A stretch of DNA of 39,603 bases from Cyanophora paradoxa CCMP329 (lineage: Eukaryota; Plantae; Glaucophyta), in contig QPMI01000366.1 of assembly GCA_004431415.1 (NCBI GenBank), positions 1-39,603 on the forward strand, given 5' to 3'. The notes under the pieces are model-generated. The model saw nothing but the letters and a program-made list of their open reading frames with translations, did not search any database and was not told where the DNA came from. Below are positions 396-29,628 of this stretch, piece by piece. Every line of letters begins with the position of its first letter. Position 1 is the stretch's first letter. Position numbers and translations under genes: made by a program.

Positions 396-3284
396 GCGAC
401 GGGGAAAGGCGTACCCGGACGACGGCGCGGAGGCGGTCGGGGTCCGTGAAGAAGTCGACGAACAGGCGACGCGTGTACCCCATCTCCCCCGCCCCCCGCT
501 GCTCCTCCGCCTGCGCCCCGACCCGCTGAAGCGCTAGCCCGGGGGTACCGTGGGACCTGGGGTACAGTGCGCACGCGGACGCGCTGGCGGTAGTCGTCGA
601 CGTACTTGGCGACCTGCGCGGAGCGTGGGGGGGGGAAGCACCAGCGGGGGGTACGCAGTCCGCGGACCTCCTCGTGCAGCCGCGCGCGGGCGGCCGCCAC
701 TTCGTTCGCCATCTCCGACAGCTCCTGCGGGGCGCCTCAGCGTTGTCGCTCGGGCGGGGAAATGAGGGGGGCGCGGGCGCGCCCGCGGGGTGAGCTCGAA
801 GGGCGTGCCGAGGCCCTCCGGGCAGAGGACGAGCCCGAGCGCCTCGATCCCGTCCTTCCTGCGGCGTTGCGGGGTCAGGGCGCGCGCGCTCGCCGGGCGC
901 GGGGGGTGCGCGCGTGACGGCCGACGCGGCGGCGGCCTCCTCCTCCGCCCTCTTCAGCTGCTCCTTCAGCTCGTCCCGCTGCGACGAGGGCTCGGGGGCC
1001 GGGGGAAGCAGGCGAGGGCGGAGGGGGCGCGGGGCACGGGCCTTGGCGAGGAGGCGGCGGGAGGCGTCGACGAGGGCGGCGGGGTACGGGGCGCCCTCGT
1101 CAAGGAAGCCCCGGAGGAGGGCGGCGGCGGCGAGGGCGTCGGGGTGCCGCGCCGAGATCCGCCGCTCGAACTCCTCCCGCCGGTCCTGCCGCAGCGCTCC
1201 GTACGCCGCCTGCGGGGTCCCGCCGCCGCGCCGCCGCTCAGCGCACGCCGCGCCCCGCCCGGGGCGCCGTGGGGGGCGCACCATGCGCGCGGCGAGCGCG
1301 TCGCTCTCGTTCTGCAGCCACTCCAGCGCGACGCCCACCTGCAGGGCGCCCCCCGGATCGAGGGCGGTGCTCGAACCCAGAGCTGCGCCGGGCCGGGCGG
1401 GGCGCACGTCGGCGGAGTGGTCGAGGAGGCGCCGCCACTCGACGTCCAGCACGCCCTGCGCCGTCGCCAGCCGCGCCTGCCCGGCCCCGCGCGGCGCAGG
1501 CCCGGTCGACCCCACGCGGGCGGGCGGGCCTCGGGCGGGGGCGGGGCGCACGCGCTGGGAGAGGAGGGCCTCTGTCATGGCGCCCACGTGGCCCTCCAGC
1601 CACGCCCGCCGCGCCTCCAGCCCGGCCTCGTACTCCCCCCGGATCGCCGCCGCCTGCCGCCGCCGCTGCCGTGAGGCCCGGCGGGGCGGCGAGGGGCGCC
1701 CCGGGCGGGCCCTGGCGTCGGCGACGCGGGCGGAGCGCTCGCGGAGGGCCTCCAGCTTGGCCTCCACGGCCCCGGGGGCGCCCGGCCCCGCGCCGCCGCC
1801 GCCGCCAGCACCTCCTCCGCCCCCGCCCCGCCCTGCGCCAGCTTCCCCAGCGCCTCGATCTGCGCCCCGCCCCACGTCGGCCGGAGACCGCGGCGGGGCG
1901 GGGGCGGGGAGGGCGGCGGGGCCCACGACGGCCTCGTGGGCGCTGAGGCGGGCCGCCTGCCGCGCCCGCTGCACCTCCACCGCCGGCGTCCTGCGCGGGA
2001 CCGTCGGGCGCCGGGGGCTCCGCGCCGGGGCCGGCGGGGCGCACGCGGCGCGGAGGCGCTCGAGCTCGTCGAGGAGGCCGGCGCTGCGCTCGCCCTCCAG
2101 CCGCTCCGCCTCCGCCACCGCCCGCCGCAGCCGCTCCGCCACGCCCCTCGCCTCCTCCCCGTCCCACCCGCCCGCCCCGCCCGCCCCTTCCCCCTCGCCC
2201 TCGTCCTCCTCGTCATCTTCCTCGTCCTCGTCCTCGTCGCGGCAGGTGCGCTCGATGCGGCGGGCGAGGCGCCTGGCGCGGGCGACGACGGCGGCGGCGA
2301 GGCGGCGCTCGGCCTCCAGCCACGGGCGCACGTCCGTGTAGCAGAGGAACGCCGGCTCCGGCGCCGCCGACTCCGCCGAGCCGGCGGCGGCGGCGGCGTG
2401 GCGGAGGAGGAGGCGGAGGCGCCCGGGGCGGGGCGTGGGCGGGGCGGGGGCGGCGGGGCGCGGGGGAGAGGAGGGGAGGGAGGCGAGGAGGGCGGGGGCG
2501 GGCCGGTGGAGGGCGGCGAGGCGGTGGCAGGCCCCCGCCAGCTCCTCCAGCGCCGCGTTCATCTGAGGCCCCCCCGCGTCAGCCGCGGCCCTCCCGCCGC
2601 GCGGATCCGGAGGGCGGCGCACGTTGGCGTTGGCGGCGTGGATCTCGGTGCGGTGGGAGGAGGGCGCCCCCTCGGCGGCCGCCTCGTCCGCCTCGGCCCG
2701 CGCGGCGGCGGTCTTGGCGTGCACCGCCTGGCAGGCCGCCACCAGCCGATCCCGCGTCCGCACCAGCGCCTCCTGTCGCGCCTTCAGCGGCTGCAGGCGC
2801 GCCGAGAGCTTCTCCACCCGCGCGCTGCCGCCGCCGCCCGTCAGCGGCGCCCGGGCTGAAGCGCGGGAAGCCATAGAAGGCGAACCGGACGGCGGCCGCC
2901 GGCTCCCTCTGCGGCCGCTCCTCGACCTCCCTCAGCGCCGCCTGCAGCGCCTCGCCCGAGAGCGCGCGCCCCGTCCGCACGAGCTCATTGTACCTGGCGT
3001 GGGCGCGGGCGGTGTCAGCGCGAGCGCTGCGCTTGAATTCGAACGCGGGCCGCGAGCGCGCACGCTGCGCGGTCCTCGGAACTGACGAAGTTGCGCTCCT
3101 TCGTCACGTTCTCCGTGAGCCAGTTGAAGAGTGTACGGACGGAGTCTGGCGCGTTCGCGTAGAGCCACTCGACGGCGGCCGGGTCGATGCGCTCTGGGTA
3201 GTCGAGGGCAGCGAGGAGCTGACGCAGCGCCAGGGGCCCCGTCCGCTGCGCGAGGCTCCTGTCGGACTTCGGGTGGTCCGACAT
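273..3284 (-). CDS. HAUS3: HAUS augmin-like complex subunit 3 (AUG3), multi-exon
   Basis: N-terminus LDYPERIDPAAVEWLY..LFNWLTENV..NFVS..YNEL.RTGRALSGEALQAAL resembles the HAUS3 N-terminus. C-terminal RRLFVDFFTDPDRLRAVVR resembles the AUG3 motif VFVDFFCNPERL. Coiled-coil exons are separated by short introns. Last exon 335-273 ends in TAG. Internal exon boundaries only partly resolved. Confidence 0.82.
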
Positions 3285-3472
3285 GGTCGCTGCCTCTCGC
3301 GGACGACCCGCTCAGCTAGGAAACGCCACGAGAGCGCCTCGCACGCCTCGAAACGCCGGAGTTCGTGGAAGTTTAGGGGTACAGGGGCGACGCGACGACC
3401 ACGATACATCAGCTTCAAATCAGCCTCAGCACATCTCGGGAAGGATCACCTCAGCACACACATCAGCAAGCC

Positions 3473-4054
3473 ATGAGCCAGGCCCAGATACACGCGCCCT
3501 CGCGCGGCATCAACAAGCGCTCGAAGAGGAAACGGGTCCTCGCGCGAGGTGCGTCCGCCGCCCGTGCGCTGCCCAGAGAGCCCGGCAGCTCGAGCGCAGC
3601 CCCCGTGACAGCGCCCCGCGAGCGCTCGGCCTCACGATCGCGGGCGTACGCAGGCATCGACCTCATCTACGAGGACGTGAAGCCAGAAAACGCGGAGAAG
3701 TTCAAGAACCTGCCGATAGACGACGACCTGCCTGGACTGGGCCAGCACTACTGCATCCAGTGCAGGCGGGCCGCCCGCGCCCGCCACGCCGCGCTCGCCG
3801 CCAACCGCGCGCCGCAGTCGGTACTTCGTTTCTGATGAGATCCTCAAGGCGCACACGAGGAGCAAAGCCCACAAGAAGCGGTGCGCCCTCGGGGCACGGG
3901 CAGCCGGGCGCACGGGGCCCCCCAGTGATCCCCGCCGGCGCGCAGGCTCAAGGAGCTTAAGGAGGAGCCGTACTCGCACAGGGAAGCGGAGGCGGCGGCG
4001 GGAATGGGACCGCCGGACAACGGGAAGACCTCAAAGGACAAGATGCAGACGTAG
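3473..4054 (+). CDS. ZNF593: Zinc finger protein 593 / Bud20 (60S biogenesis), 4 exons
   Basis: Introns 3549-3653, 3766-3817 (GC-AG) and 3881-3945. Spliced product: ...[72 protein letters not shown], the typical ZNF593/Bud20 C2H2 finger and flanks. Confidence 0.93.
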
Positions 4055-4256
4055 GCCGCAGGCGCCGGGCTGCGGCTGCCGCGGTGCAGCTAGCGCTCGC
4101 GCCCCTTCTCACCCCCAGCGCTCCACCTCCGGCCCTCCAGCGTTCACACTCCGCCTCCTCTCCCGCCGCCCCCCACCGTGGCACCCCTAGCTTAGTAGCT
4201 CTGTCTCAAGTCGACCACGTGCTCCTGGCTTGACCCGTGAAGGTCCTCAGCGATAC

Positions 4257-7200
4257 TCAATAGCGTTCACATAATGCGGGAATAAGGAGAATACTAGGAT
4301 ACACGCAGGGGCGGGCCCGGGCGGTGTCCTCGCTGCTAGGCTGGGCCCCCGCGGCGCCGGCGGGTCGCTCACCGCCGCCGCCGCGGTCTGGACTGCCCGC
4401 TGCCCCTGTGCAGCTGGCTAGGAGCAGACGCGCTTCCGCGCGCACATCTCGCCGCCTGCGGTGCGCAGGGCTCGGCGAGGAGACGCGCCGGGGGGGCAGG
4501 GGCGGGCGGGGGCGCGCACGGGCGGCGGCGGCGGCCTCGTCCTCGTCGGAGGAGTCCTCGGCGCCCTCCTCCTTGGGGTCCGTGAGGATCCACTCGGTGG
4601 CGAACTTGGAGCCCCACGAGCGCATCGCGTCGTGCTCGCTGCCGCCCCCGCGTAAGAGGGCCCCGCGGGGCGCTCCTGTCGAGTGCGGGGGCGGGGCACC
4701 TGCGGCGGCCGCGGAGGTGCCCGACGCGGGTGAACTCGACGGTGCCCGACTTGGGGTTGATCCCGACGATGGGCTCGTGGTGCGCCCTGCCGCCCCCGGC
4801 CGTGAGAGGGGCGCGGGGCGGGGCGGGGCGGGGCGGGGACCCGGCGGCGGCCTCGACGAGCTCGGAGAGGGCCCCGTCGTCGTGGCCCCGGAAGCCCCGC
4901 CCCTCCTCCTCCCGCTGCGTCCCCGGCCGGATCCGCTCCTGCCCCGCCCGGCCTCACGGGCGGCGGCGAGGGGCGGGCGGGGGGCGGGCGGGGCCACGCA
5001 CGGGGCGGGGCGACGGCTGCACGATGACCACCTCGTCGTCGGCCTCGGCGCCGGCGTCCGCCCCGGGGCGCCCCGCCTGCAGCCGCGCAACCGGCTCCGC
5101 CATCGAGCTGCTCCTGCGCCCCGCCGCCTCTTCAGAGCGCCGCCCCGCTGCCGGCCGCCCCGTGCCGGCTCAGAGAACGCACCGGGAGAGAGGCGCGCCG
5201 GCGGTGGCGGGGGTACGGTTGCGGGAGGAGGTGCGGGGCGGGTTGACCTTCGGGAGGGGAGGGGAGGGTGCCGGCCGGCGGCCGGCCGGCTTCCAGGGGG
5301 CGGGGGCGGGGGAGGAGAGGGCTAGGCGGGGGGCGGCGGCGGCGGGCGAGACGGGGGCGCTCCGGGGCTTAGGGGAAGGCGAGGGGCCCGCCTTGCCGGC
5401 AGGCGGGGACGGGGCGGCGGCGGGGGCGCGGGGCCGGGAGGCGGGGAGGCCCCGGGGTGCCTCCGGGGGGGCGGGGGCGGGGGGCCTCCGGGGCGCGCGC
5501 GGCGAGGGCGGCCACCTCCGCCTCCTCCTCCTCCTCCTCCTCCTCGGCCCCCGAGGTGGCCGTGGAGGCGTCCGAGGCGGAGCGGACGCGGCAGAGGGGC
5601 GGCTGGTCCAGCAGCGTGATCACCGTGCAGTCCACCGGCGAGGCCGGCGGCAGCCCGCACGGCACCGCGTGCGCCCCCGCCCCCGGCTTCCCCGGCGTCC
5701 CCGCCGGCGCCCCCGCCGCCGCCTTCCCCGGCGAGGCGGCCGCCGTCTCCGTCGCCGGCGCCGCCTCCCCCTCGGGCTCCGACACCCTGCGCCGCCCGTC
5801 GGGGGCTGCCGAGGCGCCGGCGGGGATGCAGGGGAAGCGAGGTACGTGAGGTCGATGGAGAAGGAAGCGGCGGTGGCGGCGGCGGCGGCGGTGAAGGCGG
5901 AGCCCAGGCCGCCCTGCGCGGGCACGTGAGGCGGGGCGGGGCGTCGGACGCCTCAACGGGCGGGCTCGCCTCGCGGCCGATGAGGGCGGCGGTGCTCGGC
6001 GGGGGCGAAGCCGACGCGATCCGCTGCAGAATCTGCGCGCGCCCGGCGTGAGGGGCGCCCCGGGGCGCGCCGGCCCCGCGGGGTGAAACCTTCGGCTTGG
6101 AGGGAGAAGGGGCAGAGGGCCGTCCCCGTTGGGCGGGCTGGAGGAGACGGCGGGGGCGGGGGCGGGGAGGCGGGCGACCCCTCCCGCTTCTCCGGCGTCC
6201 CCGCCGCCTCCACGCGTCGCGCCGCGCCAGACGGGCCCGCCGCCGGCTCGCCCGCCGCCGCCGCCGCCGCCGCCGCCGAGGGAGAGGACGGCCCCGCCGG
6301 CGCCGGCGCCTGCCCCGCCCGCTCCTTCTCCTTTTCCTTCTCCTTCTCCCGCGCCGCCGCGAGCTCCATGCGCGCCCTGCGCGGCTCAGCGGGCGCGGGA
6401 CGGGGAGCCGGCGGGCGGGGCGGCACTTGTGGCGGGCGAGGCGGCCCTTGTTGTGCGCGTGCCACGTCCGCAGCGCGCGGTCCGAGCGCTCCTGCGGGCG
6501 GGCGGGCCGGCGGGCGGGCGGGCCTCAGCGGGGCGGGGAAGAAGACGGGAGAGCGGGCTCCCCTCGCGGGGCGCGCACGTTGAAGAGGCGGACGAGGTGC
6601 TCGAGGCCCTCGTCGGAGAGGAAGCGCACGTGCTCCCGCATCGTCTCCAGGCACGCCTGCCGGCCCGTCAGGCCCCGGCCAGCGCCCGCCCCGCAAGGCC
6701 CCGGGGTAGTGCGCGCACGGAGATGACGCCGTCGCGGGCGCGGGCGATGATGTCCGCGGCGGCGGCGTCGAAGGCCGCGGGGTCGAGGGGCGTCGCCGCC
6801 CCCCGCACCACCCGCTCGTAGAAGCGCACCTCCACCTGCCGCCCCCGCCGCTCGGCCCCGCCCCCGCCGCGAGCCGGGAGCCGCGTTTGACCCGCGCCGC
6901 CGCACCTCGTCGAAGGCCACGGCGATGACGGCGTTGATGCGGTTGAAGAGCTGCCGGCAGGGGGGCAGAGCGCGCGTCAGCCGCGAGGCAGCGCCGGGCG
7001 GCGCTCGGGGGCGGGGCGCGCACCTCGTCCTTCGCCATTACGTTCTGCTGGTTCGCCCAGTACAGCAGGTCGTCCGCCTGCGCCCGCCCCGCTCGCCCGG
7101 GGCGCGGGGGCGGGCGGGCGGCTGGCCATGGGCTGCTGGGGCCGCACCCGGGCCCGGAAGAGCCGCGCGCAGCGCTTGAGCTCCGACACGTCGACGCCCT

Positions 7201-8318: not shown

Positions 8319-10159
8319 ATGACTGTCCACGAGGAGGAGATCTTCCTGTTCACTTCGGAGTCCGTCAACGAGGGCCACCCCGGTGCGCTCGCGCGCAAGC
8401 ACGCGGCCTCTAGCGCCCAACTGACTCCGTCGCCCGGGCAGACAAGCTTTGCGATCAGGTGTCGGATGCTGTCCTCGATGCCTGCCTGAAGGAGGACCCC
8501 GCCTCGAAGGTCGCTTGCGGTGTGTCGCGATTGCGGGTTGCGGCCAAGATTCCCGCGCTCATCGGGACTCGGCGCTCCGCGCAGAGACCTGCACCAAGAC
8601 CGGCATGGTTATGGTGTTCGGCGAGATCACCACGAAGGCGAAGGTGAACTACGAGCAGGTCGTTCGCGACACCCTCAAGCACATTGGCTACGATGACGCC
8701 AAGAAGGGTGCGCCGCCGCGGGCTAGTAGTTGAATTGGTTGCGCCTCGTTCTAGAAAAGAGCATTCGTTCGCTCTTCCAGCCCCGGGCTGCGGGGATTTG
8801 GCTCGCCGAGTGCTGACAGTCGTTTCGCCCAGGCATTGACTACAAGGACTGCAACGTCGTCGTTCACATCGAGGAGCAGAGCCCCGATATCGCACAGGGC
8901 GTGCACATCAACAAGGCTGACCTCGAGGTCGGCGCCGGCGACCAGGTGCCATTGCCGGCTTCGCTTCTTGCGTTTCTTCGGCTCACGCTGGGGCGTGCGC
9001 GTGCAGGGCCACATGTTCGGCTACGCTTCGGATGAGACCCCGGAGCTCATGCCCCTCACCCACACCCTGGCCACCCAGCTCGGCTACCGCCTCACTGAGG
9101 CCCGCAAGAACGGCGAGTGCCCGTGGCTCCGCCCGGACGGCAAGACGCAGGTTCGCCATCATTCAGCCGATTCGCACTCTTCGCGCGAGCGCGCAGGCTC
9201 GACCCTCGGCTCACGCGGAACGCGCAGGTCACCGTCGAGTACAAGCGCGTCGGCGGCAAGCTGACTCCCCTCCGCGTCCACACCATCCTCATCTCCACCC
9301 AGCACTCTGAGGAGGTCACCAACGAGGTCATCCGCAAGGTCCGTCGGCCGCCGGCCTGGCCCGACCGCGCCGCCGCGCCGCCGTCCCCGACGCCGCGGCG
9401 CGCAGGAGCTGATGGAGAAGATCATCAAGCCCGTCGTGCCCGCGAAGTACCTCGACGACAAGACCATCTACCACCTGAACCCCTCCGGCCGGTTAGCCCG
9501 CCCGCCCACTCGCGCTCGCGGTGCGAGTGCGGCGCGCCTGACCGTCGGCCGGCCGCGCAGCTTCGTCATTGGTGGCCCGCACGGTGACGCCGGCCTCACC
9601 GGCCGCAAGATCATCATCGACACCTACGGCGGCTGGGGCGCGCACGGCGGTGGCGCCTTCTCGGGCAAGGACCCGACCAAGGTCGACCGCTCGGCCGCCT
9701 ACGCCGCCCGCTGGGTCGCCAAGTCCCTCGTCGCCGCTGGCCTCGCCCACCGCCTCATCGCCCAGGTCCGCCTCGCACGCGCGCGCCTCGCGCTCAGCCG
9801 GCCGGCCGGCCGACCCCTCGCGGCAGGTCTCGTACGCCATCGGTGTCGCGGAGCCGCTCTCCGTCTACGTCGACTCGTACGGCACCTCGAAGCTGACCAA
9901 CGCCGAGCTCCTCGAGATCGTCAAGGCCAACTTCAACCTCAAGCCCGGCTACATCGCCCGCGACCTTGACCTCCTCAAGTGCGCCGTGCCCCCGCGCCCC
10001 GCTCCTCCTTCCTTTTCATCCCTTTCTTACGGCGCGTGCAGGCCGCGGTACCTCAAGACGGCCGCGTACGGCCACTTCGGGCGCGACGACGGCGACTTCA
10101 CCTGGGAGAAGCCCAAGCAGCTCACCATCCCCGAGCACCTCAAGGCCAAGGTCAAGTAG
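8319..10159 (+). CDS. MAT: S-adenosylmethionine synthetase (methionine adenosyltransferase, canonical MAT), 10 exons
   Basis: Motifs [68 protein letters not shown] and [13 protein letters not shown] introns at 8383-8441, 8520-8584, 8708-8832, 8946-9006, 9151-9227, 9339-9405, 9492-9560, 9766-9826 and 9979-10041 give one open frame. Confidence 0.98.
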
Positions 10160-14490: not shown

Positions 14491-14577
14491 TTGTGACAGG
14501 GTGAATTAACCGTGTGACCGCAGCACCTACAGAGGCCTAGGGGTCGAGAGGATTCGACAAGATGCGGGCAGTTGACA

Positions 14578-15839
14578 ATGCATATGCTCGTTGCCTTCAG
14601 CTTGATCTGCCTGCTATTCGCGAACGTGGACATGGCCAACGCGCAAGTATCAGCAACAATATCAGCCGCAATTGCTACCTCCACGGCACCCACAGCGACC
14701 ACAACGAGTGCAACGTTTGCGTGGACATTTACGTTTGCAAGGACACAGGGAACCGGAACTCCTCCGACGATTACTGTGACCTCACCAAAAGGCACCTGCG
14801 CCCATCCGTACGGCGTGACAGCGACCCAGACACACGTGACAGGCAGCGCTACTACAAATACAGGCTCATGGACGTCTTCTGCCCTCGCATACAGCTCCTT
14901 TCCGGAAACGGGTACTGCCCAGCAGCTCTCCTGCGCCGTGACCTTCACCGCTTCATGCTCAACGTGCACAACTACTGGTACTTTCACTTGCACTAACTGC
15001 GTTGCGGGTTCTTGTACGCTTTCAACGACTACTCCAATTACGCTTACGAACTGCGTGAGTAACACATTAACCCTCTCAACAACTCTCACTGCAGGTGGTC
15101 TCTTTATTTGGCTTTTGAAAAGCACGTGAGTTATCTAACGAGCCCTGCAGTGAAAACAATCACAGCGATTGGTTCGCCAACGGTTACGACTGCGAGCACT
15201 ACCAGCGTCAACGTTGGATCGGTGACCGTCACGCAATCATCTACCCCGACAACGCTGTACACGAACGCATTCCAATCTGTAACATGCACAAGCAACTCCA
15301 TTTCAGTGATTGTCGGCCCGACCGCGCTTGCCAGCACGGCAACCACAACTGCGGCTGTCAATGGCGCATCGTCGGCTTTGTGGGCCACTTCATCGTACCC
15401 CGTCAGCTGCAGGGTCACCGTCACCTACTCATACAATGGTACGATCACCAGCTCTGCAGTTTCAACCACTGGTGAGCGCCTTTAAATTTGCACGTCAGTT
15501 CATAAATGCATGTTGCAGTTGCCGCAATTCCTCACCGTCGCAATTGCTCCAGTTCCTTTCAAGACCGCATCGTCCTTGACATTCGGGACGCTCTTGGCCG
15601 CATCGACCACTTCAGTAACAGTCCCGTTCAGCTGGACGCTCTCGACGGGGTACGCGGCTTCCCCAACGTACGGCAGCTTGACTGTTACTTGCTCGGGATC
15701 CCCCGGAAGTGGCGTCGAGGTCACGAAGACAGGGAGCACGGTTCTTTCAGCCGGAGCCAGCAGCGCCTCTTTGGATGTGACTGGGTTTCCGGAATTGAGC
15801 TCACCCTACACAATATCGTGCTCCTCAGCACACATATGA
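14578..15839 (+). pseudogene. Secreted Thr/Ser-rich beta-strand-repeat surface protein, interrupted by the viral insertion
   Basis: Signal peptide MHMLVAFSLICLLFANVDMANA-Q. Introns 15095-15150 and 15472-15552 keep the frame. Three roughly 100-aa units end in similar motifs (FPETGTAQQLSCAVT / SSYPVSCRVT / FPELSSPYTISCS). The third is cut at ~15828 and reads into a stop inside the viral hairpin. Confidence 0.7.
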
Positions 15840-15903
15840 ATATTCATATTTTAATCCCTCGGCGTTCCGCCTCAGGATTAAAATATGAATATTCATATGT
15901 GTG
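15829..15903. repeat. Terminal hairpin: perfect 29-bp inverted repeat with a 17-nt loop
   Basis: CACACATATGAATATTCATATTTTAATCC (15829-15857) is the exact reverse complement of 15875-15903. Each arm contains the 16-bp palindrome ATATGAATATTCATAT. Confidence 0.95.
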
Positions 15904-16290
15904 ATTCGATGTTATATCAATAAAATCGATTAATTTATTTGAATTTTCACATGAATTTTCATATTTTTAAATGCATTTTCAATTAATTTAATCGATTTTA
16001 TATCGATAAACTCGATTAATCGATATTGTATCTTAATTGTAGTTAATCGGAATTATATCTATAACTTCGATTAATCTTAATTGAATCCTAAATGAATCTA
16101 ATCGGAATTATATCAATAAATTCGATTAAATCATGTTCTTTTCCTATTAAATCAATTAAATATTTAACTTTGTTACCATAAGTGGTCTAAGTTGACTCAC
16201 TTTTCATAAACATTTTGAACTCTTAGTCTCCTTGAATTTCTTAAGATGACTCAACTTAGTCAACTTAGTCAACTTTGTTACCATAATCAA

Positions 16291-17060
16291 TCAGGGTGGA
16301 CTCACTTTTAGATCAACTTTGAAATTTCAAGCAAAATCAACTTATATTTCAAAAGTGGATCTTCTAAGTGGACTCATAATGTTCACTTTGTGATACATTT
16401 AAGTTCTTATGCTTACTGTATATGGTCAGGGTTGACTAAGTGGGGGGAGTTGACACATTTTTCAAAATCTTTTATAGAATATTCTTTGGATCTCAAAATT
16501 TCCTCTGAAATTTGAGTCAACTCAACCCACTTAGTCAACCTTAGCATTGAAATGGTCACATTTTTATATACATTTACTCCTTTTACGATTAATATGAATC
16601 AACCATGAGTCCACTTAGTATTAAATATTAATCAATGTAAATATAAACAAGGGGATTAAGAGGAATGCTTATTGAATATGGTCAGGGTGGACTCACTTTT
16701 TCATACAAATCGAATTCCCAAGTAAATTTGACTCTAAATTGTTAGGTGGATCTTCTAAGTGGACTCAAAATGTTCACTTTGTGATACTTGTTAGCTCAAA
16801 TCCTTACTGTTTATGGTCAGGGTTGACTAAGTGGGGGGAGTTGACACATTTTTTCAAATCCTTTTTAGAAAACTTTAGGTCCCAAATATTTCCTGTGAAA
16901 TTTGAGTCAACTCAACCCACTTAGTCAACCCTTGCATTGAATTCGTAACAAAATCCATATACTATTACTACTTTTACGATTAATATGAGTCAACCTTGAG
17001 TCCACTTAAATATAAATATAATATAATAGGGGGAATCTAGGGGAGATGCTTACTAAATGC
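16291..17060. repeat. Two imperfect ~390-bp tandem direct repeats, each with an internal inverted repeat
   Basis: GGTTGACTAAGTGGGGGGAGTTGACACATTTT at 16430 and 16821. TTTGAGTCAACTCAACCCACTTAGTCAACC ends at 16540 and 16930. Motif blocks are conserved and spacers diverged. Confidence 0.9.
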
Positions 17061-17942: not shown

Positions 17943-19328
17943 CTAGCTAGTTTTGGTCCTTTCTCTTAGTGTTCTCTGAGGTTTAGGGGCTGTATATGAC
18001 TCCTTAGTAGTCTGAAAGTCATTATACCATCTCTGGCTATTAACCTCAGAAAGTTTCTGTGTCCCTGCTATAGTGAGCTTTTTGAGTTCCCTATTAACCT
18101 TGCCAGTCTTCTCCTTTCTAGCCTCTATCAAAGGCTTATCTGGGACTTCATTAGCAGCTTCTATGCCTTCTCTCCTTATAGCAGCATCAACCTTGGCTTC
18201 CTCTTTGGCTTGCTCTAATGCATCCACTGTAGGGGTTTCTAGATATTCAACTGAATTCACAGGCAACAGCTCATGGAAAGCAAACCTGTTATCTATGATC
18301 TCACCAGTGGGACTCCTTAGCTTAAACTTAAAGCCTTCCCTACTATCAACAGTGTAAACTATCCTAGACCAATTGTTACCCTGTTTGGCAAAGGGGTTCT
18401 TCTCAACTTTCACTCTAACAAACATGCCAGGCTGCATGGTATCAAGGTAAGCTATTGATTTCTTGAATCTTTCATCTTCTAATCCCACTATATACCTATA
18501 ATGCTCCTCTGTAGTTTCGCCTGGCTTCATCTTAGTAGCTGAGTGGACTGTATTATTGTAATTATACTCAATATCACCTAACACATCAAAGAATCTAGCT
18601 GTGTTATTAGCTATGCAGTAGTTTGTGATCAGTCTCTTAATCTGCTTGTTAAAGGCTTCAATTCGACCTTGGCTTCTATGGTCAGCAGTTCCACTCACTT
18701 GGTGTTCTATGAATTTACTAGATAAATACTCCTGGAATATTCGATTTTGGAACTCACTCCCAGCATCTGATTGAACTTTTACTATGGGTCTTGCCACTCT
18801 CATTTCAAGCTGCTTAAATGCAGCCAATGTAGTGAGAGCTGATTTATCTCTTATAGGTATAATATACCCAGTTCTCAGTGTTGATTCCATTGCAGTCATA
18901 AATGTATCATAGCCATTGTTTTGTTTCTTATAAGCTGGGAAAAAGAGCAAATCAATCACATAGGTATCAAGGGGTTGCCTAATTGGGACCATGGGATCTC
19001 TCTTTCTAGATATAGCAGGTGCATTGATCTGAACAACTTCTTGTTTTTTATAGAACTCTTGCAACTGCTTATAGGATTCATCTGGTAACTCAGCCCTCAT
19101 AGCTTGAAGCCCTTTATAACCAGTTCTCACATCATAGAATCTCTTGGCAATCTTGCTGGTTTCTTTCACTGCAATAGCAACTGGGATCTCTACTGGGACA
19201 AGCTCTTTCATCTCTGACTTTTTTACAATTCGAGATTCCCCCTTTTCCTCCTTTGGAATTGTGATGGGCAGTAGGTTACCTTGCAGTTGCTCAGTGGTTC
19301 TCCTAACTATTCTTCCAGTTGCTGGCAT
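17943..19328 (-). CDS. Retrovirus-like (rve, DDE) integrase of Polinton type
   Basis: DDE triad in VIDLL...VQSDAGSEF...QGRIEAFNK. YNNTVHSATKMKP and G.FVRVK..K.PFAK..NWS motifs are typical of Polinton integrases. Intact 461-aa ORF. Confidence 0.95.
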   Translation of the reverse strand: MPATGRIVRRTTEQLQGNLLPITIPKEEKGESRIVKKSEMKELVPVEIPVAIAVKETSKIAKRFYDVRTGYKGLQAMRAELPDESYKQLQEFYKKQEVVQINAPAISRKRDPMVPIRQPLDTYVIDLLFFPAYKKQNNGYDTFMTAMESTLRTGYIIPIRDKSALTTLAAFKQLEMRVARPIVKVQSDAGSEFQNRIFQEYLSSKFIEHQVSGTADHRSQGRIEAFNKQIKRLITNYCIANNTARFFDVLGDIEYNYNNTVHSATKMKPGETTEEHYRYIVGLEDERFKKSIAYLDTMQPGMFVRVKVEKNPFAKQGNNWSRIVYTVDSREGFKFKLRSPTGEIIDNRFAFHELLPVNSVEYLETPTVDALEQAKEEAKVDAAIRREGIEAANEVPDKPLIEARKEKTGKVNRELKKLTIAGTQKLSEVNSQRWYNDFQTTKESYTAPKPQRTLRERTKTS

Positions 19329-19331
19329 CTC

Positions 19332-22300
19332 TTAATTAAAAGGAACAGAATTAATACCATCTGGTAAGATGTATCTCTTTGCATCAAAGCAGTTCAGGGC
19401 AACCCTTCTACTCACAGTGTCTATTATTGTGTGATCTGCCCTTCTCTTCTGCTTGGCAGTCACAGTCTTGCTTATACCTGCAAATAAACACTGCTTAAAA
19501 TCATTAAATTGGAGTTCCTCAGTTGAAGTCCCAGAGAGCATACTTCTCTCAATCTCAGCAGTTCTGAAACTGTAAACTTTGGCTCTCAGACCCACATATT
19601 CCAATATAGCAGAACCTGGCATCTCATTTTTGTATTTACCTGGGGTCATTCTGTTGGATCCCCCTAGATCCAGATTAAAGGATATATTCTCTAGATCCTT
19701 TTGGAGGGTCTTAGATTCGATATATAGACAAAAGGAATCAGTATCATGGAACAGTAATTTGGCTTTGGACCATTGGGACCTTACAGTATCATAGAAGAAC
19801 TGGTAATTATGCAGTTTGGCTGCATCCAAAACATAAGCCCCAATTGCAACAGGCTTATCTAGTTTCACATGCTTTGTGTAAAACTCAAAGGCAACTGCTT
19901 TTTCGTTTATGGGACTTGTTGATTTCACCAATGGGGAAGCTGCATATTTCATAAACAGTTTCTCACTGTTTGCAATCTTAACCACAGATCTACCTCTGCA
20001 AGATTCAATGCATTTCCCATAGATTGAGTTATTCATGAGTTTATAGAAATCAGCCTCGAATTTATTCACTGCTTTCCTTCTCATCTCAGTATTCAGCTCA
20101 ATGTAGGGTTTCATTACAGGAGCCACAGTAAATGAGAGGACCCTGTGAATTTTCTTTAATTTCACACCTTTGTCCAACAGATATTGCAGAAGAGGCTCAG
20201 AAATCACATAGTTTGCCACAGAACCAAAGGTTGCAGTTAGCTTTGGGGTTTTATCAAGCTCTTCTCCTGAAAGATCTAAAAGGCTCTTTTGATATTGTGA
20301 TAATTCGGCATAATCTATTATTTTCTTGTTAATGATTAGGGGGAAATCACTGTGATCTAGAAACAGCCTAATTGGGTAATCCAGATCAACTTCCAGGAAA
20401 CTGGATCTGTTATCTTGTGGGTTGAATTCGGTCTCCCATCTAAAATCACCAACTGGGATTGGCTGACTCAAACAGTAGCCATACAAGTTGTTAGCATCAA
20501 ACAGCATAATGTGGGAGTTTTCACCATCAGCCTCAGCATACCTACAAGGCATTGTTGCAAAGCCACCCCTGATTCCCCTCTCAACAAATTCATATTGCTC
20601 TACATCACTTATAAGCTCTATTTTTGCCTTGGTGGTCCTAAGCATAGCATCCCAAGATAACCCAGGTGCAGATACATAATGAACTGGGTCAAGTCCATAT
20701 ACTGAGTGTGAAAGCCTTCTGAAGGCTTGGAATTTGTCCATTAACTCATCTACATCAGCAGCTCCAAAGTCCATGAAATTACTTGCATCAATGAACTTGT
20801 AAAGTCCCCATTGCAATGAAAGGTATTGATCAAAGTTTTTTGAAAGGATTTCGATTCGCTTTTTATCCCCTAAACCTGCTATTTTTCTGAAAATGAATGT
20901 CCCACAGTCATCCATTTGGTCAACAACCACTGCAACTTTGGTTTGCTTTGAGATTCTCCTATGCAGATTGCAGTTTCTGCATGCAGGAGCAATGTAATGA
21001 CCTGTGTGGTGGTCATGATCTCTGCATTTGAAGTTCTCCTTGGTGAACCTCTCACTGCAAAGGTAACAGTGTTTAGTAGCCCTGTAAACAGCCTTTTGCT
21101 CATCTGTGAGTTCATTCATGGGAATATTGGTAAACAGAAAATCGATCAGCTCTCTTGCTTTGGACTCCAAGCATTCAAAGAGACCTCCCATTGGATCCTG
21201 CCCCTCAAATCGAAAATCTTGAACATCTTCCCCAGTGACTACTCTAAGGTTCACTGCTGAGACTTCCCTCTTAGATTTTGATGCATCAATGGGGATGCTT
21301 CTATGTTCAATCTTGCAGTAAACCACAACAGGAAGCCAAACAGTTTTCCTGAGGTTTTTCAGTCCAAACTCTATGGTGGTCTCAGGTTTTGGTGTGATTC
21401 CCTTTGAGAGTCTCCAATCAATGCATCTATTTGAGTCCACATGAGCAGTGAGTTTAGCCTCAGACCTGAATCGAGATAAGCATGTGTCACAGTAGTGTAA
21501 CTTCTGATCATTGTATGTTTCATGGTTTACTTTCAATAATCTTGAAAGGGACATGATTGTAATATAATGACCATTCCCTTCATCATCAAATATCAGCATG
21601 AGATTAACCTTATGCTTTCTGCCTGGGTTACTGGATTGATGCAGGGGATAAATAACCTCTCCATCGATTCCAAATATATTAATGCTAATGCCTGCATTTT
21701 GAGCCTCGAATTTATCAATAATCTCAGCATCACAGGCAACAGGGAATGGGATGTTATCGAAATTCAGAGCCAGCGGATTATAAGCGATTGCTGAGTATTT
21801 CCATTTGCGATATTGTGAAAGCTCATTCCTCTTATGGGAGTTTATCGCTTTTCTGTGAATATATGCCAAAATTGCATTTTCGAAGCAGGAATCATCAATA
21901 TTTCGAATATTCACTGTGGCTCTCTTCCTAGCAATCCACTCTGGGGTTTGTAGAAAGCATCCACCAGTTGGAGCATAACTCATAATAGCCACTCTGAGTA
22001 TTTCAATTCTTTCTAAGCGATAGCTATCAACCACATTCATCTGCTCCTGGCATATTTGGGCTGCTTTATTCAGCTCAGTTCGAATATTTCTCGATCTGGT
22101 TAGTACAAAATAATCGCTGTAAATGTATTTCGATATCCAAACCTGCGGATTGCTTACTTTTACGAACTTGCAGATAAAAGACAAGCGAACCTTGATTGCC
22201 CTGAATTGATCTAAACCCTGCTTTAATCGATTAGGAAGGGATGTAGCAATTCTGTCCAGGAATTCAATCACATCTACAACAACTTCCCTTCTGGCTCTGT

Positions 22301-22577: not shown

Positions 22578-22635
22578 TATTCCTAACTTGTTCCTATTCT
22601 AAGGGGATATTTTATTTTAGAGCATTTTAAACGCA

Positions 22636-22820
22636 AGTGGACTAAGTGGGTGGAGTTGAGGCACTTTTTATTTCTTTTTAGGGCAGAGTCCTTTTTTAGA
22701 ATCTGTGAAAAAATGAGTCAACTCCCCCCACTTAGTCAACCTAATCGATAAATAAACCATAAATAAAAGACTGTTTGGGTCTTTTATGATAAATTTGAGT
22801 CAACCATGAGTCCACTTTTG
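22636..22820. promoter_or_regulatory. Third copy of the inverted GTKGACT motif cassette, upstream of pPolB
   Basis: GTGGACTAAGTGGGTGGAGTTGAG...GAGTCAACTCCCCCCACTTAGTCAACC...GAGTCAACCATGAGTCCACTT matches the cassettes at 16.4-17.0 kb. Function is inferred. Confidence 0.65.
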
Positions 22821-22827
22821 AGTAAAC

Positions 22828-25420
22828 CTAAACTTCAACATCAGAATCATAATCTGATGCATCAGGATCAGCAGCAGGTAGGTCCTGTTTCATCCTTGGA
22901 TTAGCTTCTTCCTCAATAGTCTCATCATCTACAAGCTTCATCTTTCTGAATTCCTCAAATACTTGTGGGAATAGGAAATGATAGTATTGTTTGCCATTTG
23001 TAGTTTTCACTTGGATATATGTAACACTTCTCATTTCAGTATAATATCGGCGACTATTATAATCGTTTTTATATTTATTGCTGGTAATAAACTCCTGGAA
23101 CCACTTCCAGGTTTCCACAAGGCTACCAGACTTGCATTTATTCTCGGAAATTAAGCCTCGATCCACAAGCCACTTAGTGAACATAAGAATGATTGGAGCG
23201 CACACCTGTTGGGCTAAATAGTATTTATTTGTAAGGGGTCTATCAGCAATCCAGTTCACATCCTCACAGTCAACTTTGGTTCTCAAATAGTGGGCAATGT
23301 TTCGAATATTGCAGTGATCATTTAGCCATTTTACAAGTGGAAGGAAGTATGACCTATCCTTTGCGAATTTCTTACTAACTTCAACAACCACAAATCGCCT
23401 ATCTCCAGCTTCAATTTTCACTGGAATGTTGTTATTGCTGGTGAATATAATCCTGGCAAAGTTGCTTTTTGTGTATGAATCTATCCCTTTGTGTTCAATT
23501 ACAATCTTATCAGAAGTTATGAGATCTTTGAGCATATCATTATTTTCGAATGTGTCCTTGCCTGAGGCTTCATTCACAACAATCAAGATCTTATCCTCTC
23601 TATTGTGGGCAAATCGACCAAACAGATCCTCTTTTGGCTTTCCAGTTGCATAACTTAGGGCATCTCCAAGTATCTTCTTTTGGAAAGTATCAACCAACAC
23701 ATTTTTACCAGTTCCCTGCTCACCAATGAAGATTAAGGATACTCCATTGAGTTCCCCAGGCTTTTGCAGCATGTGGGCAAACCATTTCAACAGATATTCA
23801 TAGGTATTTTGATCCTCACCAGACATTAAGAACAAGTGATCTAGGAAAGGCTTAATCATCTCAGCAGTTACATCCTCTGGAGCATTTTCGAATTGCTGAT
23901 GGTCGACCTTCATTCCTGGATAGAGATTAAATACAGACTTGCATTTTGCACTGAGAGTAGCAGGAGGGGGAAGGAAATCCATGTAAGTTGATCTTGTGGC
24001 TGTTGGATCCACAATCCATTTCCTAAATGATTGCTCCCATTTCTCTTTCTCATTATCTGTTCCCTCATTGACAATCACCTTATGCATCAAATGGGGAAAT
24101 GCTTTGTAGAGAGCTTCCCAATATCTTTGGGCATCCAGCAAAGTAGTTGTTCATCCCAGAGCATCACACAACCAACATTTTCAACATGATGCATTCGAGC
24201 ATTGAAATACCTCTTATGCACATTGTAATGTTCAGCCAAAGGAGGGATACTTGCAGTCTTGTAATCGATTTCATCTGTGTCCTCTGGTAGGAATGCATAC
24301 TTTTTGGGAAGAGTTCCTTGAAAAGCTCATTGTTATCTTTGCTCAACCAATAAACCAAGGATTTGAAGGTCAACACTTTGCCAGGCTCAGCCTTCTTCTT
24401 GCTTCTGCGAAGCTGTGTAAACTTTTCCTGGCATTCATCATAATCATACTTGTCACTCTGTTCTGAGAATTGGTGGAAGAGTTCAGCCTGCATTTTAGGG
24501 GTAAATTTGTTGTCTTCCCCAACATTGATGATGACCAGTCCAACATCAATCCAAGTCTTATACTCGCTGGCTCTTTCAGCATTGAGACCCATTATAACAC
24601 TTTGTAGCAGTTCGAAAGTAACAGGATTTTCGGGTTCAGTGTCTTTTTCAGCTTCTACCTTCTCAGTCTTCACTTTATCACTTTTTGGCTCCTTTTTAAC
24701 TGGTTTTGGCTCAGGAGTATAATTTGCAAATGCAGAAATATTTGATTCATCCACAAGTTTAGTAGTAGCTGAGAAGTAAGATACAAAGAAGTCCTCATTT
24801 CGCATTAACACTTTGTCACAGTCAACGAATTTCTTAAAGCAAACGTTTTTATCAACATCTTTCTTTGATTTATTTTGAGCATCCAGAGTCTCACCTTTGC
24901 AGCAATTGAGGCAGATAAGGTTCTGTGTGGAGCTGTAAACTCCACTGTCATAATCCTCATTTTTCACCAATCCCATAGCTTTGAAAAGCTTGGGGATATC
25001 TTCATGTTTGCAAGCAAGTGTTTTAATGATAAAGTGGGCTGAGATCTTGAACTTGGTGACATCCTCCTTGATCAAATAAACCCTTCTATGGCGAACTGCA
25101 ACAGCAATATCGTTAATAGAAGTGGTACCAGATCGCTTCCATAGCTTATCTCTCATCTCTCTTACAACAGTTTCCGCCTCAGCATAGTTATCAGCAATGT
25201 TCTCCTTCAAATCAGCGAATTTATCCAGGTCCAGGTAAACTCTGGTCACTTGCTCAGGTTGAATGCATTCAGCCCAGGTCTTAACCTTGCTATTATCAAT
25301 GGCTTCAAGGGCATCTTCGGCAGAATCAAATACATGGGTGACCTTGTTGCGATCACCAATGAGAGTACTAAGGAATGTAGCATTTTCAACAGGGGTGGCG
25401 AATTTCTCGATTTTGTTCAT
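22828..25420 (-). CDS. AEP-type primase + PriCT-2 + superfamily 3 helicase (D5-like); two homopolymer frameshifts at ~24303 and ~24093
   Basis: AEP motifs VYLDLD, KISAHF and DSGVY. PriCT-2 segment YKTWIDVG..FHQFSEQSDKYD. SF3 motifs GEQGTGKN, VVNEA and IIFTSNN. A bridging frame KYAFLPEDTDE...KHFP links the two ORFs. Confidence 0.88.
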
Positions 25421-27412: not shown

Positions 27413-28193
27413 TTATAAACCGCGTTTATATCGCATCAATTTATTGCTATGGACTTGGCTTTTCACTTCTTTGGGGGCTTCCTCTTTCTCTGGTGGTTTC
27501 AGTTCATCTTCTTTCTTTTTTGGCTTCCTGTGGAAGCGAGGAAATGGGAAATCTTTCACAAGCTCAGCTTTATCTACATAGTATTTAACTGAGTAGTTTG
27601 CAGAGGACCAAATGATATACTGATAGGAGTGAACATACTCTTCAAACATCTTGTAGAAATCCTCTTTATTTCGCATTATATTGTATTCTTCCTCTATGGC
27701 TTCCAGTTCTTTGCGATTTGCAGCACTTAGAAACATTGCATAATCCGAATTTACTCGAATAGTCGAAGAGACTTTTCTTAGCTTTTGTGTGATGCAGATA
27801 ATGGATATTTTCGAATGGCGACCTCTGGAATACAGAGATCCGATTATTTTATCCCTTGTGAGATCGACTATCTCATTATCGATTAAATCATCTAAAACCA
27901 CACACAATTGGTTAACAGGTTCACCTTTCTCTATTTTCTCTTGCCTCTCATCTAGCAATTTAGCAATGTAAGGGCATCCCATTTTCCCAGTTGCAGTGTT
28001 GCCACTTTATCCCAGAAATGATTGAAGCTGGTTCCACTCACAACTAATACAACATCAATCTTTTGGCATCATGTAATTGCTTTAACCAATACTTTACAGC
28101 TTCTGATTTACCAGTTGCTGATTTTCCTATTGCCAATACACGAAATGGTGGTTCTATCATTTCACCAGCCACAAATTCATCCAAATCAGTCAT
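27413..28193 (-). CDS. A32/FtsK-like genome packaging ATPase (two homopolymer frameshifts)
   Basis: MTDLDEF..PPFRVLAIGKSATGKS (Walker A, upstream frame), VVLDDL (Walker B), RGRHSKISIICITQ and IRVNSDY. Confidence 0.92.
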
Positions 28194-28258: not shown

Positions 28259-29628
28259 CTATAAATTAATTCTGCGTAAACCATCTTTGTCGACAATAAT
28301 AAAGCTATGCATGAGAGCGCGAACATTAACATCGATTACCTTATCTGAAGGCATGTAGAGGGTGAGGAATGAAGAGGAGGAATTTGTTAAATCAACATAA
28401 CCAGACTGGGCAATATTTCGAATCGCCTTTTCTCCATCAAGGCAGAAAGGCAATCCTGAAAGGACATAGCGATCAGCAACCTTATCCATGTTAGAGCATT
28501 TGAAGGCATCAGCAATTAGCTCAGCACCTTTGAGTAGGGAAATTGGCTCAGTGGCAAAAAGTCGCTGACCATTTATTTCAGTTGTAAATGTTATGTCTTT
28601 GGAGTTGGCATAGGTCTTAAGAACACTGTGGGAGCCATTGGATTTGTCAACAGTTGCATTATCACGAACTGAAACAAGCAGAGCATATACAAGACCTGAG
28701 ATTTGAGAGAGGTTAATTCGATTGGGTTGGGCATTGCCCTTAGCAGGGAAAGCAATAGCATCAACAAATCCAATATCAAGGGAGGGAATAGCCATGCCAG
28801 TAGTCTTAACTTTTTCAATTACAGTAGCGAAAAGCTCATCAGAAACATTAATAGCATGCATATAAAGGCGAGAGAAGTAATTGAAATTTCAGGAGTTGTT
28901 GCACCAAGAGTAAAGTCTGTGATGTTTTGACCAACATTTGCCAGAACAGTTTCAGCAGGGGCAGTTCCAAGACCATCATCTTTTGAATAATCTACATCAG
29001 CTGCTGCAACAGTAAGACCACGACCACCATAGGATGTTTCAACATAGCCTTTTCCAACATCCTTAAACCAAACAGTAACAACCATTTCACCAGATAAAGC
29101 ACCAAGGGGAAGGTAGTGATTTAGCCAAGGCACTGGAATTTCAACGAAAAATGAGCCACCAAGTCGGTTGGTTCCATGAGCAGGGATGCCATGAACCATG
29201 CCCATTGATCGTTTCTTTTTAGCTAGTTGATCCTCCGAATAATAGACCAGGGGGAAATGAGCAAGGAAATCAGATGGAATATGGTAGGTGTAAGATCCAT
29301 AGGTAATTTCAAGTCGCTGAACTAAAGCACCAACTGGGCGAGTGTATCCATTGCGAACTAGATCAGTATCACCAGCAAAAGTGATAGCTGGAAGGTCAAA
29401 AGCAAGTTCGAGTTTTCCACAGAAATTGTAGCGAGGTAGCTTGAAGGAAATGCGATTTCCTACATTATTTGTGAAAGTATTACTAGGATTCACAACAACT
29501 AGAACTGGCTTAGACTTGGATTCGAGACCAAGCATAAGGGAGTTATCCAGGAAAAAGGCTTTCGCCTCCTCTGGGGTTGTTAGGGCTTCTTTCAGCGAAA
29601 GTCTTTGAAGAGTGGAAGTGATATCCAT
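28259..29628 (-). CDS. Double jelly-roll major capsid protein (one frameshift at ~28870)
   Basis: About 455 aa when joined. ISFKLPR..KLELAFDLP, LVQRLEITYG, FFVEIPVPW..YLPLGAL..MVVTVWF and GYVDLT are DJR-MCP-like. Located between the ATPase and a penton. Confidence 0.82.

Follow-up and report, generated by a model that had tools for sequence, protein, structure and literature searches.

A 73-base terminal palindrome with a strand-specific G·A apex in a Polinton-like element of Cyanophora paradoxa, a possible self-priming hairpin

Introduction

How is the end of a Polinton-like element copied when that end can fold back on itself? The question is raised by a 39,603-nt stretch of Cyanophora paradoxa CCMP329 (assembly GCA_004431415.1, contig QPMI01000366.1; hereafter the window), in which host DNA gives way to such an element at a long hairpin. 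In the literature covered, the copying of Polinton and PLV ends is modelled and not demonstrated. End palindromes as such are already known in virophages and PLVs: the available text of bioRxiv 10.64898/2026.07.28.741278 describes palindromes at the tips of terminal inverted repeats (TIRs), with a proposal of hairpin priming, for endogenous virophages of subtypes 1, 2, 5 and 6 and PLVs of subtype 4 in Halocafeteria seosinensis. This preprint was the only source on PLV end palindromes in the literature searched, which lay outside subscription journals, and the search returned nothing on G·A apexes and nothing on a priming loop of reduced length. What is new here, with no such description in the literature searched, is a corrected element end, short-read counts of ends and of their orientation, a junction at the inner tip of the palindrome, and the link to a polymerase (pPolB) with a short priming loop and no proofreading motifs. 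We consider it probable that the palindrome is a single-strand end signal, which folds on a single-stranded 3' end during end replication.

Results and discussion

The element and its genes

By its gene content the element is Polinton-like, with an intact rve integrase, a pPolB with an EndoVII domain, a primase and a helicase, and an A32 ATPase (Table 1). The earlier note on this DNA, made from the letters alone, had likewise placed the hairpin at the end of a Polinton-like element, and the integrase, polymerase and ATPase alongside bear this out. In the integrase alignment, D126 and D188 are invariant in 7/7 sequences and E224 is present. A capsid candidate at 28819–29628 had no Pfam, PDB or homologue match (none at E ≤ 0.001), and its model reached a pLDDT of 46; because a capsid gene was not identified, the label "virus" rests on the ATPase and gene order. 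Among 19 ORFs or ORF pieces of the left part of the element, which the window holds, no Pfam match to an HUH/Rep nickase was found. The hairpin stands at the host/element border, with a GC fraction of 0.54 in the 1.3 kb before it and of 0.25–0.36 after it; the host is a eukaryote rich in GC, and its DNA further left of this flank has a GC fraction of 0.6–0.8.

Table 1 Features of the element end and of the genes next to it, in window coordinates.
Position	Strand	Feature	Basis
15824..15829	+	host bases adjoining the element and a candidate for the left copy of a target-site duplication of 6 (or 5) bp	end position; window covers left end only
15830..15902	.	terminal palindrome, 73 nt, 28-bp perfect stem to the element's last base	fold, depth and simulation
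15830..15857	+	outer arm, opening with the dinucleotide repeat ACACA	sequence
15834..15849	.	16-bp perfect palindrome in the outer arm, possible protein-binding site	sequence
15858..15874	-	apex	pair table; sheared pairing predicted from the available text of PMC10085684 and PMC13037366
15875..15902	+	inner arm; tip 15902 joined to host-like DNA in one contig in runs X8 and X5	contigs, simulation
15830..16330	.	probable TIR of ~0.5 kb with an approximate inner border	inferred from depth step; left end only in window
16291..17019	.	repeat block in two copies of ~390 bp, each containing inverted repeats; a third copy lies at about 22635–22829	repeat families
17943..19328	-	rve-type DDE integrase of 461 aa with D126, D188 and E224 in place	Pfam rve, E=2.6e-4, below gathering score
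19332..22577	-	1081-aa family B polymerase of the Polinton type, with a terminal-protein fold, a vOTU (C231, H337), an EndoVII insertion, intact palm motifs and a degenerate exonuclease	profiles, alignment, model
22020..22034	-	short alpha2-beta4 loop in the terminal-protein domain (residues 182–186), site of the predicted linking residue	alignment, model
20964..21101	-	EndoVII-like domain, residues 493–538	Pfam Endonuclease_7, E=5.1e-4, below gathering score
22828..24087	-	D5-like helicase ORF (DUF5906)	E=9.7e-22
24164..25420	-	primase-like ORF with PriCT-2 domain	E=5e-10
27413..27982	-	A32-type packaging ATPase	Pfam Pox_A32, E=7.4e-8, above gathering score

The exact end of the element

The hairpin had been described as a perfect 29-bp stem at the end of the element, beginning CACACA. 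The fold of 15829–15903 is exact: a 29-bp stem encloses a 17-nt loop, which in turn contains the previously noted 4-bp GGCG/CGCC stem with a 3-nt loop. Its stability of −31 kcal/mol (z −14.5) was equalled by 0/200 shuffles, and it is the sole perfect stem of more than 16 bp (loop ≤60 nt) in the window. The outermost C, however, belongs to the host. In run X2, depth falls from 5000 for the piece that begins at 15830 to 1800 for the 31-mer that begins one base earlier, at 15829. This ratio of 0.36 matches both the C fraction of the host (0.352) and a k-mer simulation with 86 ends set in random host flanks, in which an end at 15830 gave 0.36 ± 0.05 and one at 15829 gave 1.00. C15829 is therefore a host base and the element starts at 15830, so that its own hairpin is 73 nt long, with a 28-bp stem that pairs through the terminal base of the element. 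The dinucleotide repeat at the tip stands, but in the form ACACA. Polinton tips generally start with 5'-AG.

With the end in this place, the flanking six bases are 15824–15829, and the CCTCAG (15823–15828) previously put forward as a target-site duplication lies one base off, not flush with the end. Its recurrence at 15870–15875 is due to chance, because the loop is common to all ends, where it is identical despite different flanks, and because 2.6–6% of host 6-mers occur in the hairpin anyway. Both arms do carry the 16-bp palindrome that the earlier note had reported, the copy at 15883–15898 being an exact mirror of that in the outer arm, and a degenerate third copy lies at 15948–15967. The alternative cruciforms that had been suggested for the arms are unfavourable: a fold of the arm palindromes ("rabbit ears") reaches −13.4 kcal/mol against −30.6 kcal/mol for the long hairpin, i.e., about 17 kcal/mol worse. 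After the terminal hairpin, at 15920–16001 and inside the probable TIR, comes a second inverted repeat, imperfect and AT-rich (14-bp perfect core, z −2.9).

Copies, orientation and junctions in short reads

The region is present in 20 of 22 listed short-read runs, all from one organism, and five of these were examined in detail; two runs from the same study as X8 contain almost none of its sequence words. A contig leading from the host flank to the element end with 0 differences was found in 5/5 runs, and because this flank is identical in all five, the runs may represent one strain, and one of them may be the source of the window.

The hairpin is the end of a many-copy element, with tens of ends. 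Loop-spanning contigs with 0 differences were recovered in 4/4 runs, at depths of 4936, 4071, 2595 and 4410 compared to 57.8, 31.2, 39.9 and 48.6 for the host flank. This corresponds to about 85, 130, 65 and 91 ends per flank copy, which are rough figures since depth is not copy number and is subject to GC bias, in a comparison that drew on the best 32 of 224 pieces. The earlier note had proposed looking for the hairpin in sibling copies, and the sibling ends do carry it, with an unchanged loop. Its suggestion of an origin-type role is likely. The depth of the terminal region is 1.7–3.9× that at two inner sites, with a step near 16313–16360; this excess and the step near 16330 would fit a TIR of ~0.5 kb at both ends.

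The same contigs bear on whether the hairpin exists at all. Several ORFs of the window have probable indel errors, as in long-read assemblies, and a fold-back artefact of sequencing or assembly would be in keeping with these. It is ruled out by the unchanged loop in short-read contigs of 4/4 runs (depth about 2400–4900), and only an identical library artefact shared by all of them would remain.

The ends are not mixed in orientation. In X2, the sole run listing it, the 31-mer leading from the loop through the inner arm into the interior reaches a fraction of 0.97 of the depth of the loop, whereas simulations gave 1.00 for a single orientation and 0.53 for half of the ends inverted. About 97% of the ends in this run are in one orientation, unlike the flip-flop telomeres of AAV and poxviruses, in which the two forms occur in similar amounts; flip/flop loops of that type, which the earlier note had raised, are thus not the rule here. 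In one contig of X8 and X5, the loop end and inner arm run directly into host-like DNA at 15902, the point at which the X8 piece breaks; no such contig was among those listed for X2 and X17 (hence two of four runs). In simulations, the X8 contig break was reproduced by one inverted end in 116/200 cases, by one solo hairpin in 130/200 and by neither in 0/200, an inverted end and a solo hairpin giving the same signal with 31-mers. Inner-tip junctions account for at most about 3% of the ends in X2.

Such junctions, in which the inner tip, of the same sequence as the end, adjoins host-like DNA, would follow if the palindrome served excision or recombination. The arms would then act as direct repeats across the element, and recombination or a cut by the integrase would free a circle carrying a single palindrome, which would be a cruciform for EndoVII, while a solo hairpin stayed behind. 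The solo-hairpin simulations and the intact integrase and EndoVII motifs are consistent with this explanation, but it accounts for a small minority of ends, and a duplex or cruciform role needs no motifs on one strand, such as the G·A pairs described below. We consider it distinctly unlikely.

At a share of 1%, no variant letter was found in 15790–15945 in the short-read runs, and no compensatory change was seen; the few contigs with one change have depths of 5–32, below that of a single flank. This invariance of the hairpin is not significant when compared to 5 differences in the next 438 bases. Two further types of contig leave the hairpin. In 4/4 runs, one contig follows it to the apex loop at 15865 and continues into at least 255 bases of unrelated DNA absent from the window, which marks a copy that was broken, or invaded, at its axis of symmetry. 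In X2 and X8, and not in X17, contigs break at the end of the inner 16-bp palindrome (15869/15898), with no listed variant or loose end, which may reflect a fold-back at the small palindrome or an error branch.

A G·A apex on the 3'-end strand

A feature overlooked in the first reading is the strand specificity of the apex. Read on the minus strand, the one with the free 3' end, the apex would pair as T·G, G·A and A·G, followed by four Watson–Crick pairs and a GAA triloop, whereas the plus strand offers C·A, T·C and C·T mismatches and a TTC loop. In an enumeration of 82,944 apexes, made post hoc and with uniform bases, the chance of tandem G·A and a GNA loop on the same strand was 0.0023, or 0.0004 with the wobble pair included. 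In a pyrimidine-GA-purine context, tandem G·A adopts sheared pairs with cross-stacking (PMC10085684, available text), and the mini-hairpins formed by GNA triloops resist nucleases and are missed by nearest-neighbour models (PMC13037366, available text). Two properties limit the likeness: the GAA loop is closed by G-C, against C-G in the GCGNAGC mini-hairpin, and nearest-neighbour folding separates the two strands by only 1.1 kcal/mol. Judged from these letters, the G·A apex points to selection on a folded single strand.

Two other explanations run into difficulty at this apex. The palindrome could be a functionless accident, a fold-back in a founder end that was copied to all members of the family. 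Accidental annealing is offered as an alternative in the available text of bioRxiv 10.64898/2026.07.28.741278, the invariance is not significant in a young family, and searches of viral contigs returned no related end (0 matches). A fold-back copy, on the other hand, would not yield three mismatches that are all G·T or G·A on the 3' strand, together with a GAA loop; the apex is not a random loop, and an accident seems very unlikely. Less credible still is a hairpin processed from a transcript, in the manner of a miRNA, or a site that only binds protein as duplex. Three copies of the 16-bp palindrome motif and seven sub-threshold Rfam matches to miRNA precursor models could be cited in its support, but all of these matches score below half the gathering score and occur on both strands, and thus reflect hairpin shape only, while tandem G·A and GNA triloops are DNA motifs (available text of PMC10085684 and PMC13037366).

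A polymerase with a shortened priming loop

The earlier note had expected protein priming from the repeat at the tip, and the ACACA start does suit a slide-back mechanism. The polymerase complicates this expectation. A word-indexed protein search returned no match for its residues 90–480, nor for the capsid candidate, and a HMMER search succeeded for the polymerase. We modelled residues 1–440 (70 sequences, pLDDT 85); in this model, residues 75–202 match Y-family little-finger domains (Z 9.2, rmsd 2.6, 106 aligned) and residues 210–343 match OTU proteases (Z 7.1, rmsd 4.0, 105 aligned). The vOTU catalytic residues C231 and H337 are kept, the Cys/His pair being invariant in 70/70 sequences. This corresponds to the TP-vOTU layout in the available text of bioRxiv 10.1101/2024.03.18.585575, where the linking Ser/Tyr is predicted in the alpha2-beta4 loop, near Gly/Pro.

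Among 69 of 150 HMMER matches, picked for coverage and length, this loop has 6 residues in 65/69, contains Gly/Pro in 67/69 and shows a Ser column in 65/69. Here it is cut to two residues (Asp-Ser), with Asp in the Ser column and neither Gly nor Pro, so that the conserved Ser-Gly is gone. The palm motifs and the CxxC, DHDH and CxxCN motifs of EndoVII are kept, the latter bearing out the EndoVII-like domain that had been proposed for the polymerase; in contrast, the acidic residues of Exo I and II are replaced and about 100 residues before and around Exo III are missing. A short loop and an exonuclease deletion of the same kind are seen in the nearest relative, P0001 (45% identical), and because this relative shares both, we regard them as a lineage trait and not as the decay of a single copy. 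Ser185 is still found in the loop, both here and in P0001, and because it could be the linking residue, protein priming by pPolB is only doubtful.

Protein priming through Ser185, or priming by a primase at the tip, could thus be retained, with the hairpin serving as a nuclease-resistant cap that refolds the 28-bp duplex origin on displaced strands or 3' overhangs, as in end patching in Streptomyces or a local panhandle of the adenovirus type. Such an arrangement would explain the single orientation without an extra step, more simply than self-priming does, and it fits the terminal-protein fold, the vOTU catalytic pair, the ACACA tip, and the presence of a primase-helicase and internal repeat blocks in the element. 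It also has a precedent, since Streptomyces combines G·A-closed hairpins on 3' overhangs with protein priming (PMC4513846, available text). Against it stand a loop of two residues lacking the Gly/Pro of 67/69 homologues and a rabbit-ear fold of the Streptomyces type that is 17 kcal/mol worse, and the inner-tip junction is not explained by protein priming alone. On balance we hold it to be rather unlikely, if the most serious of the alternatives.

How the end may be copied

The explanation we favour, tentatively and as somewhat less than an even chance, is that the 73-base palindrome is a self-priming hairpin with strand-specific resolution. Because the G·A motifs are found only on the 3'-end strand and the predicted priming loop is shortened, the hairpin itself is likely to prime the copying of the end. 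The 3'-end strand would become single-stranded after excision or strand displacement and fold; its last base would pair with the inner arm, placing a 3'-OH on a template with no need for a protein primer; and pPolB, helped by the D5-like helicase, would extend this 3'-OH to a hairpin-closed or dimer intermediate. In the weakest step, the junction would then be cut on the G·A-marked strand only, by the EndoVII domain or the integrase, and new 3' ends would again carry the G·A loop. An asymmetric cut must be assumed because simple hairpin transfer or cruciform resolution predicts both orientations, whereas X2 shows 0.97 in one. The rare inner-tip junction could represent an occasional cut on the other strand or a product of recombination.

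Several observations agree with self-priming: the stem is paired through the terminal base, the apex motifs lie on the 3'-end strand only, the loop is unchanged at 65–130× flank depth in 4/4 runs, and one junction falls exactly at the inner tip in two of four runs. Within the polymerase, the priming loop is short here and in P0001, and the EndoVII motifs persist where the exonuclease acids and the Exo III region are lost. From outside, end palindromes in Halocafeteria favour non-pPolB replicases (bioRxiv 10.64898/2026.07.28.741278, available text), and the parvovirus left end offers a precedent for asymmetric resolution into one orientation (PMC1185569, available text). On the other side, the single orientation demands that extra asymmetric step, and no HUH/Rep nickase was matched in the 19 ORFs and ORF pieces. 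Protein priming may survive, since the terminal-protein fold, the vOTU pair and Ser185 are kept, and the tip suits slide-back. The G-C closing pair and the small energy difference between strands weaken the apex argument, no compensatory change was seen and the invariance is not significant, and the runs with identical flank may be one strain.

A bolder form of self-priming is that of a Polinton-like lineage switching from protein to hairpin priming, with a pPolB that has lost its priming loop and proofreading, a built-in EndoVII, and G·A-capped ends that are copied and resolved on one strand only. We regard this as unlikely, slightly more so than the retention of protein priming; if true, it would be a replication mode undescribed for protein-primed polymerase families in the literature searched. 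Should the polymerase extend the hairpin while its terminal-protein domain is inert, the element would document a route from protein-primed to hairpin-primed replication and connect the ends of Polintons with the hairpin telomeres found in other DNA viruses; should protein priming survive, it would be a eukaryotic-virus parallel to Streptomyces telomeres. Either way, the locus is a tractable system, combining a 73-nt end with a strand-specific apex, a priming loop that diverges from 65/69 homologues, and a nuclease in the same protein.

Comparison with known systems

The closest counterparts are the palindrome-ended virophages and PLVs of Halocafeteria, which share a palindrome at the TIR tip adjoining the target site, an rve integrase and proposed hairpin priming. 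According to the available text, they have mostly non-pPolB replicases (a preference and not a rule) and, in subtype 5, a palindrome of 52 nt, whereas here it measures 73 nt and occurs with pPolB and a primase-helicase; that text makes no mention of an asymmetry between strands, of counts of orientation or of G·A motifs. Polintons/Mavericks with a TP-vOTU-Exo-palm pPolB (bioRxiv 10.1101/2024.03.18.585575, available text) are alike in domain order, vOTU Cys/His, palm motifs, rve integrase, A32 ATPase and a short tip repeat, but differ from the present element in its priming loop of 2 residues and not 6, its lost exonuclease motifs, its fold-back end and its 5'-AC tip.

Streptomyces telomeres (PMC4513846, available text) resemble this end in having G·A-closed hairpins on the 3'-end strand, here by sequence only, and a fixed sequence orientation. 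They consist of several short palindromes with proven Tpg/Tap protein priming, whereas a single long hairpin and a doubtful priming protein are found here. The left-end hairpin of parvoviruses (MVM, LuIII; PMC1185569, available text) is likewise a 3' hairpin with an internal mismatch in one orientation, and its dimer junction is resolved asymmetrically, as is proposed here; unlike our element, these are ssDNA viruses with an NS1/HUH nickase, a gene not found in the 19 ORFs and ORF pieces scanned, and our element integrates through a DDE integrase. Finally, the GCGNAGC mini-hairpins of the phage G4 origin and of RSF1010-type ssiA (PMC13037366, available text) also place a GNA triloop at a likely replication signal, with a primase near in function, but in our case a G-C pair closes the loop, and the motif sits on top of a 28-bp stem at the end of a genome.

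Searches for related ends

An exact 21-mer of the arm occurs at 9 metagenome loci, all in (AT)/(AC) microsatellite DNA and 0/9 with a hairpin, and not in viral contigs (0 matches); a 25-mer of the apex also had 0 matches in viral contigs. Searches by protein yielded related loci for 0/10 candidates with the integrase as query, and for 4/10 and 1/2 with polymerase queries (L010–L014, 30–35% identity). A comparable terminal stem is absent from these five loci, outside which the element ends probably lie. One of them, L013, starts with AGTAG after an (ATA)n run (positions 1–90) and possibly shows a plain Polinton-type end with no long hairpin.

Other features of the window

The insertion interrupts a Thr/Ser-rich host reading frame at 14562–15829, with a weak DUF4402 match (E=7.8e-4) and the same junction in 5/5 runs; further left, 9412–9969 encodes the C-terminal domain of a host S-adenosylmethionine synthetase (E=1.6e-35). 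Within the element, the primase and helicase region (22828–25420) and the capsid candidate region (28259–29628) each fall into two ORFs that do not share a frame, probably through indels (assembly error or decay). The three copies of the repeat block bracket the integrase–polymerase pair as direct repeats and make the block a candidate internal origin or promoter; repeats bracketing replication modules are reported in the available text of PMC11296320 and bioRxiv 10.64898/2026.10.13.758929. A fibre-like gene region contains repeats of 57–66 bp at 34246–34633 and a 36-bp tandem repeat array at 36248–36679. An F5/8 type C domain lies at 31690–32433, which fits the F5/8 domain reported in glaucophyte PLVs (PMC12220804, available text).
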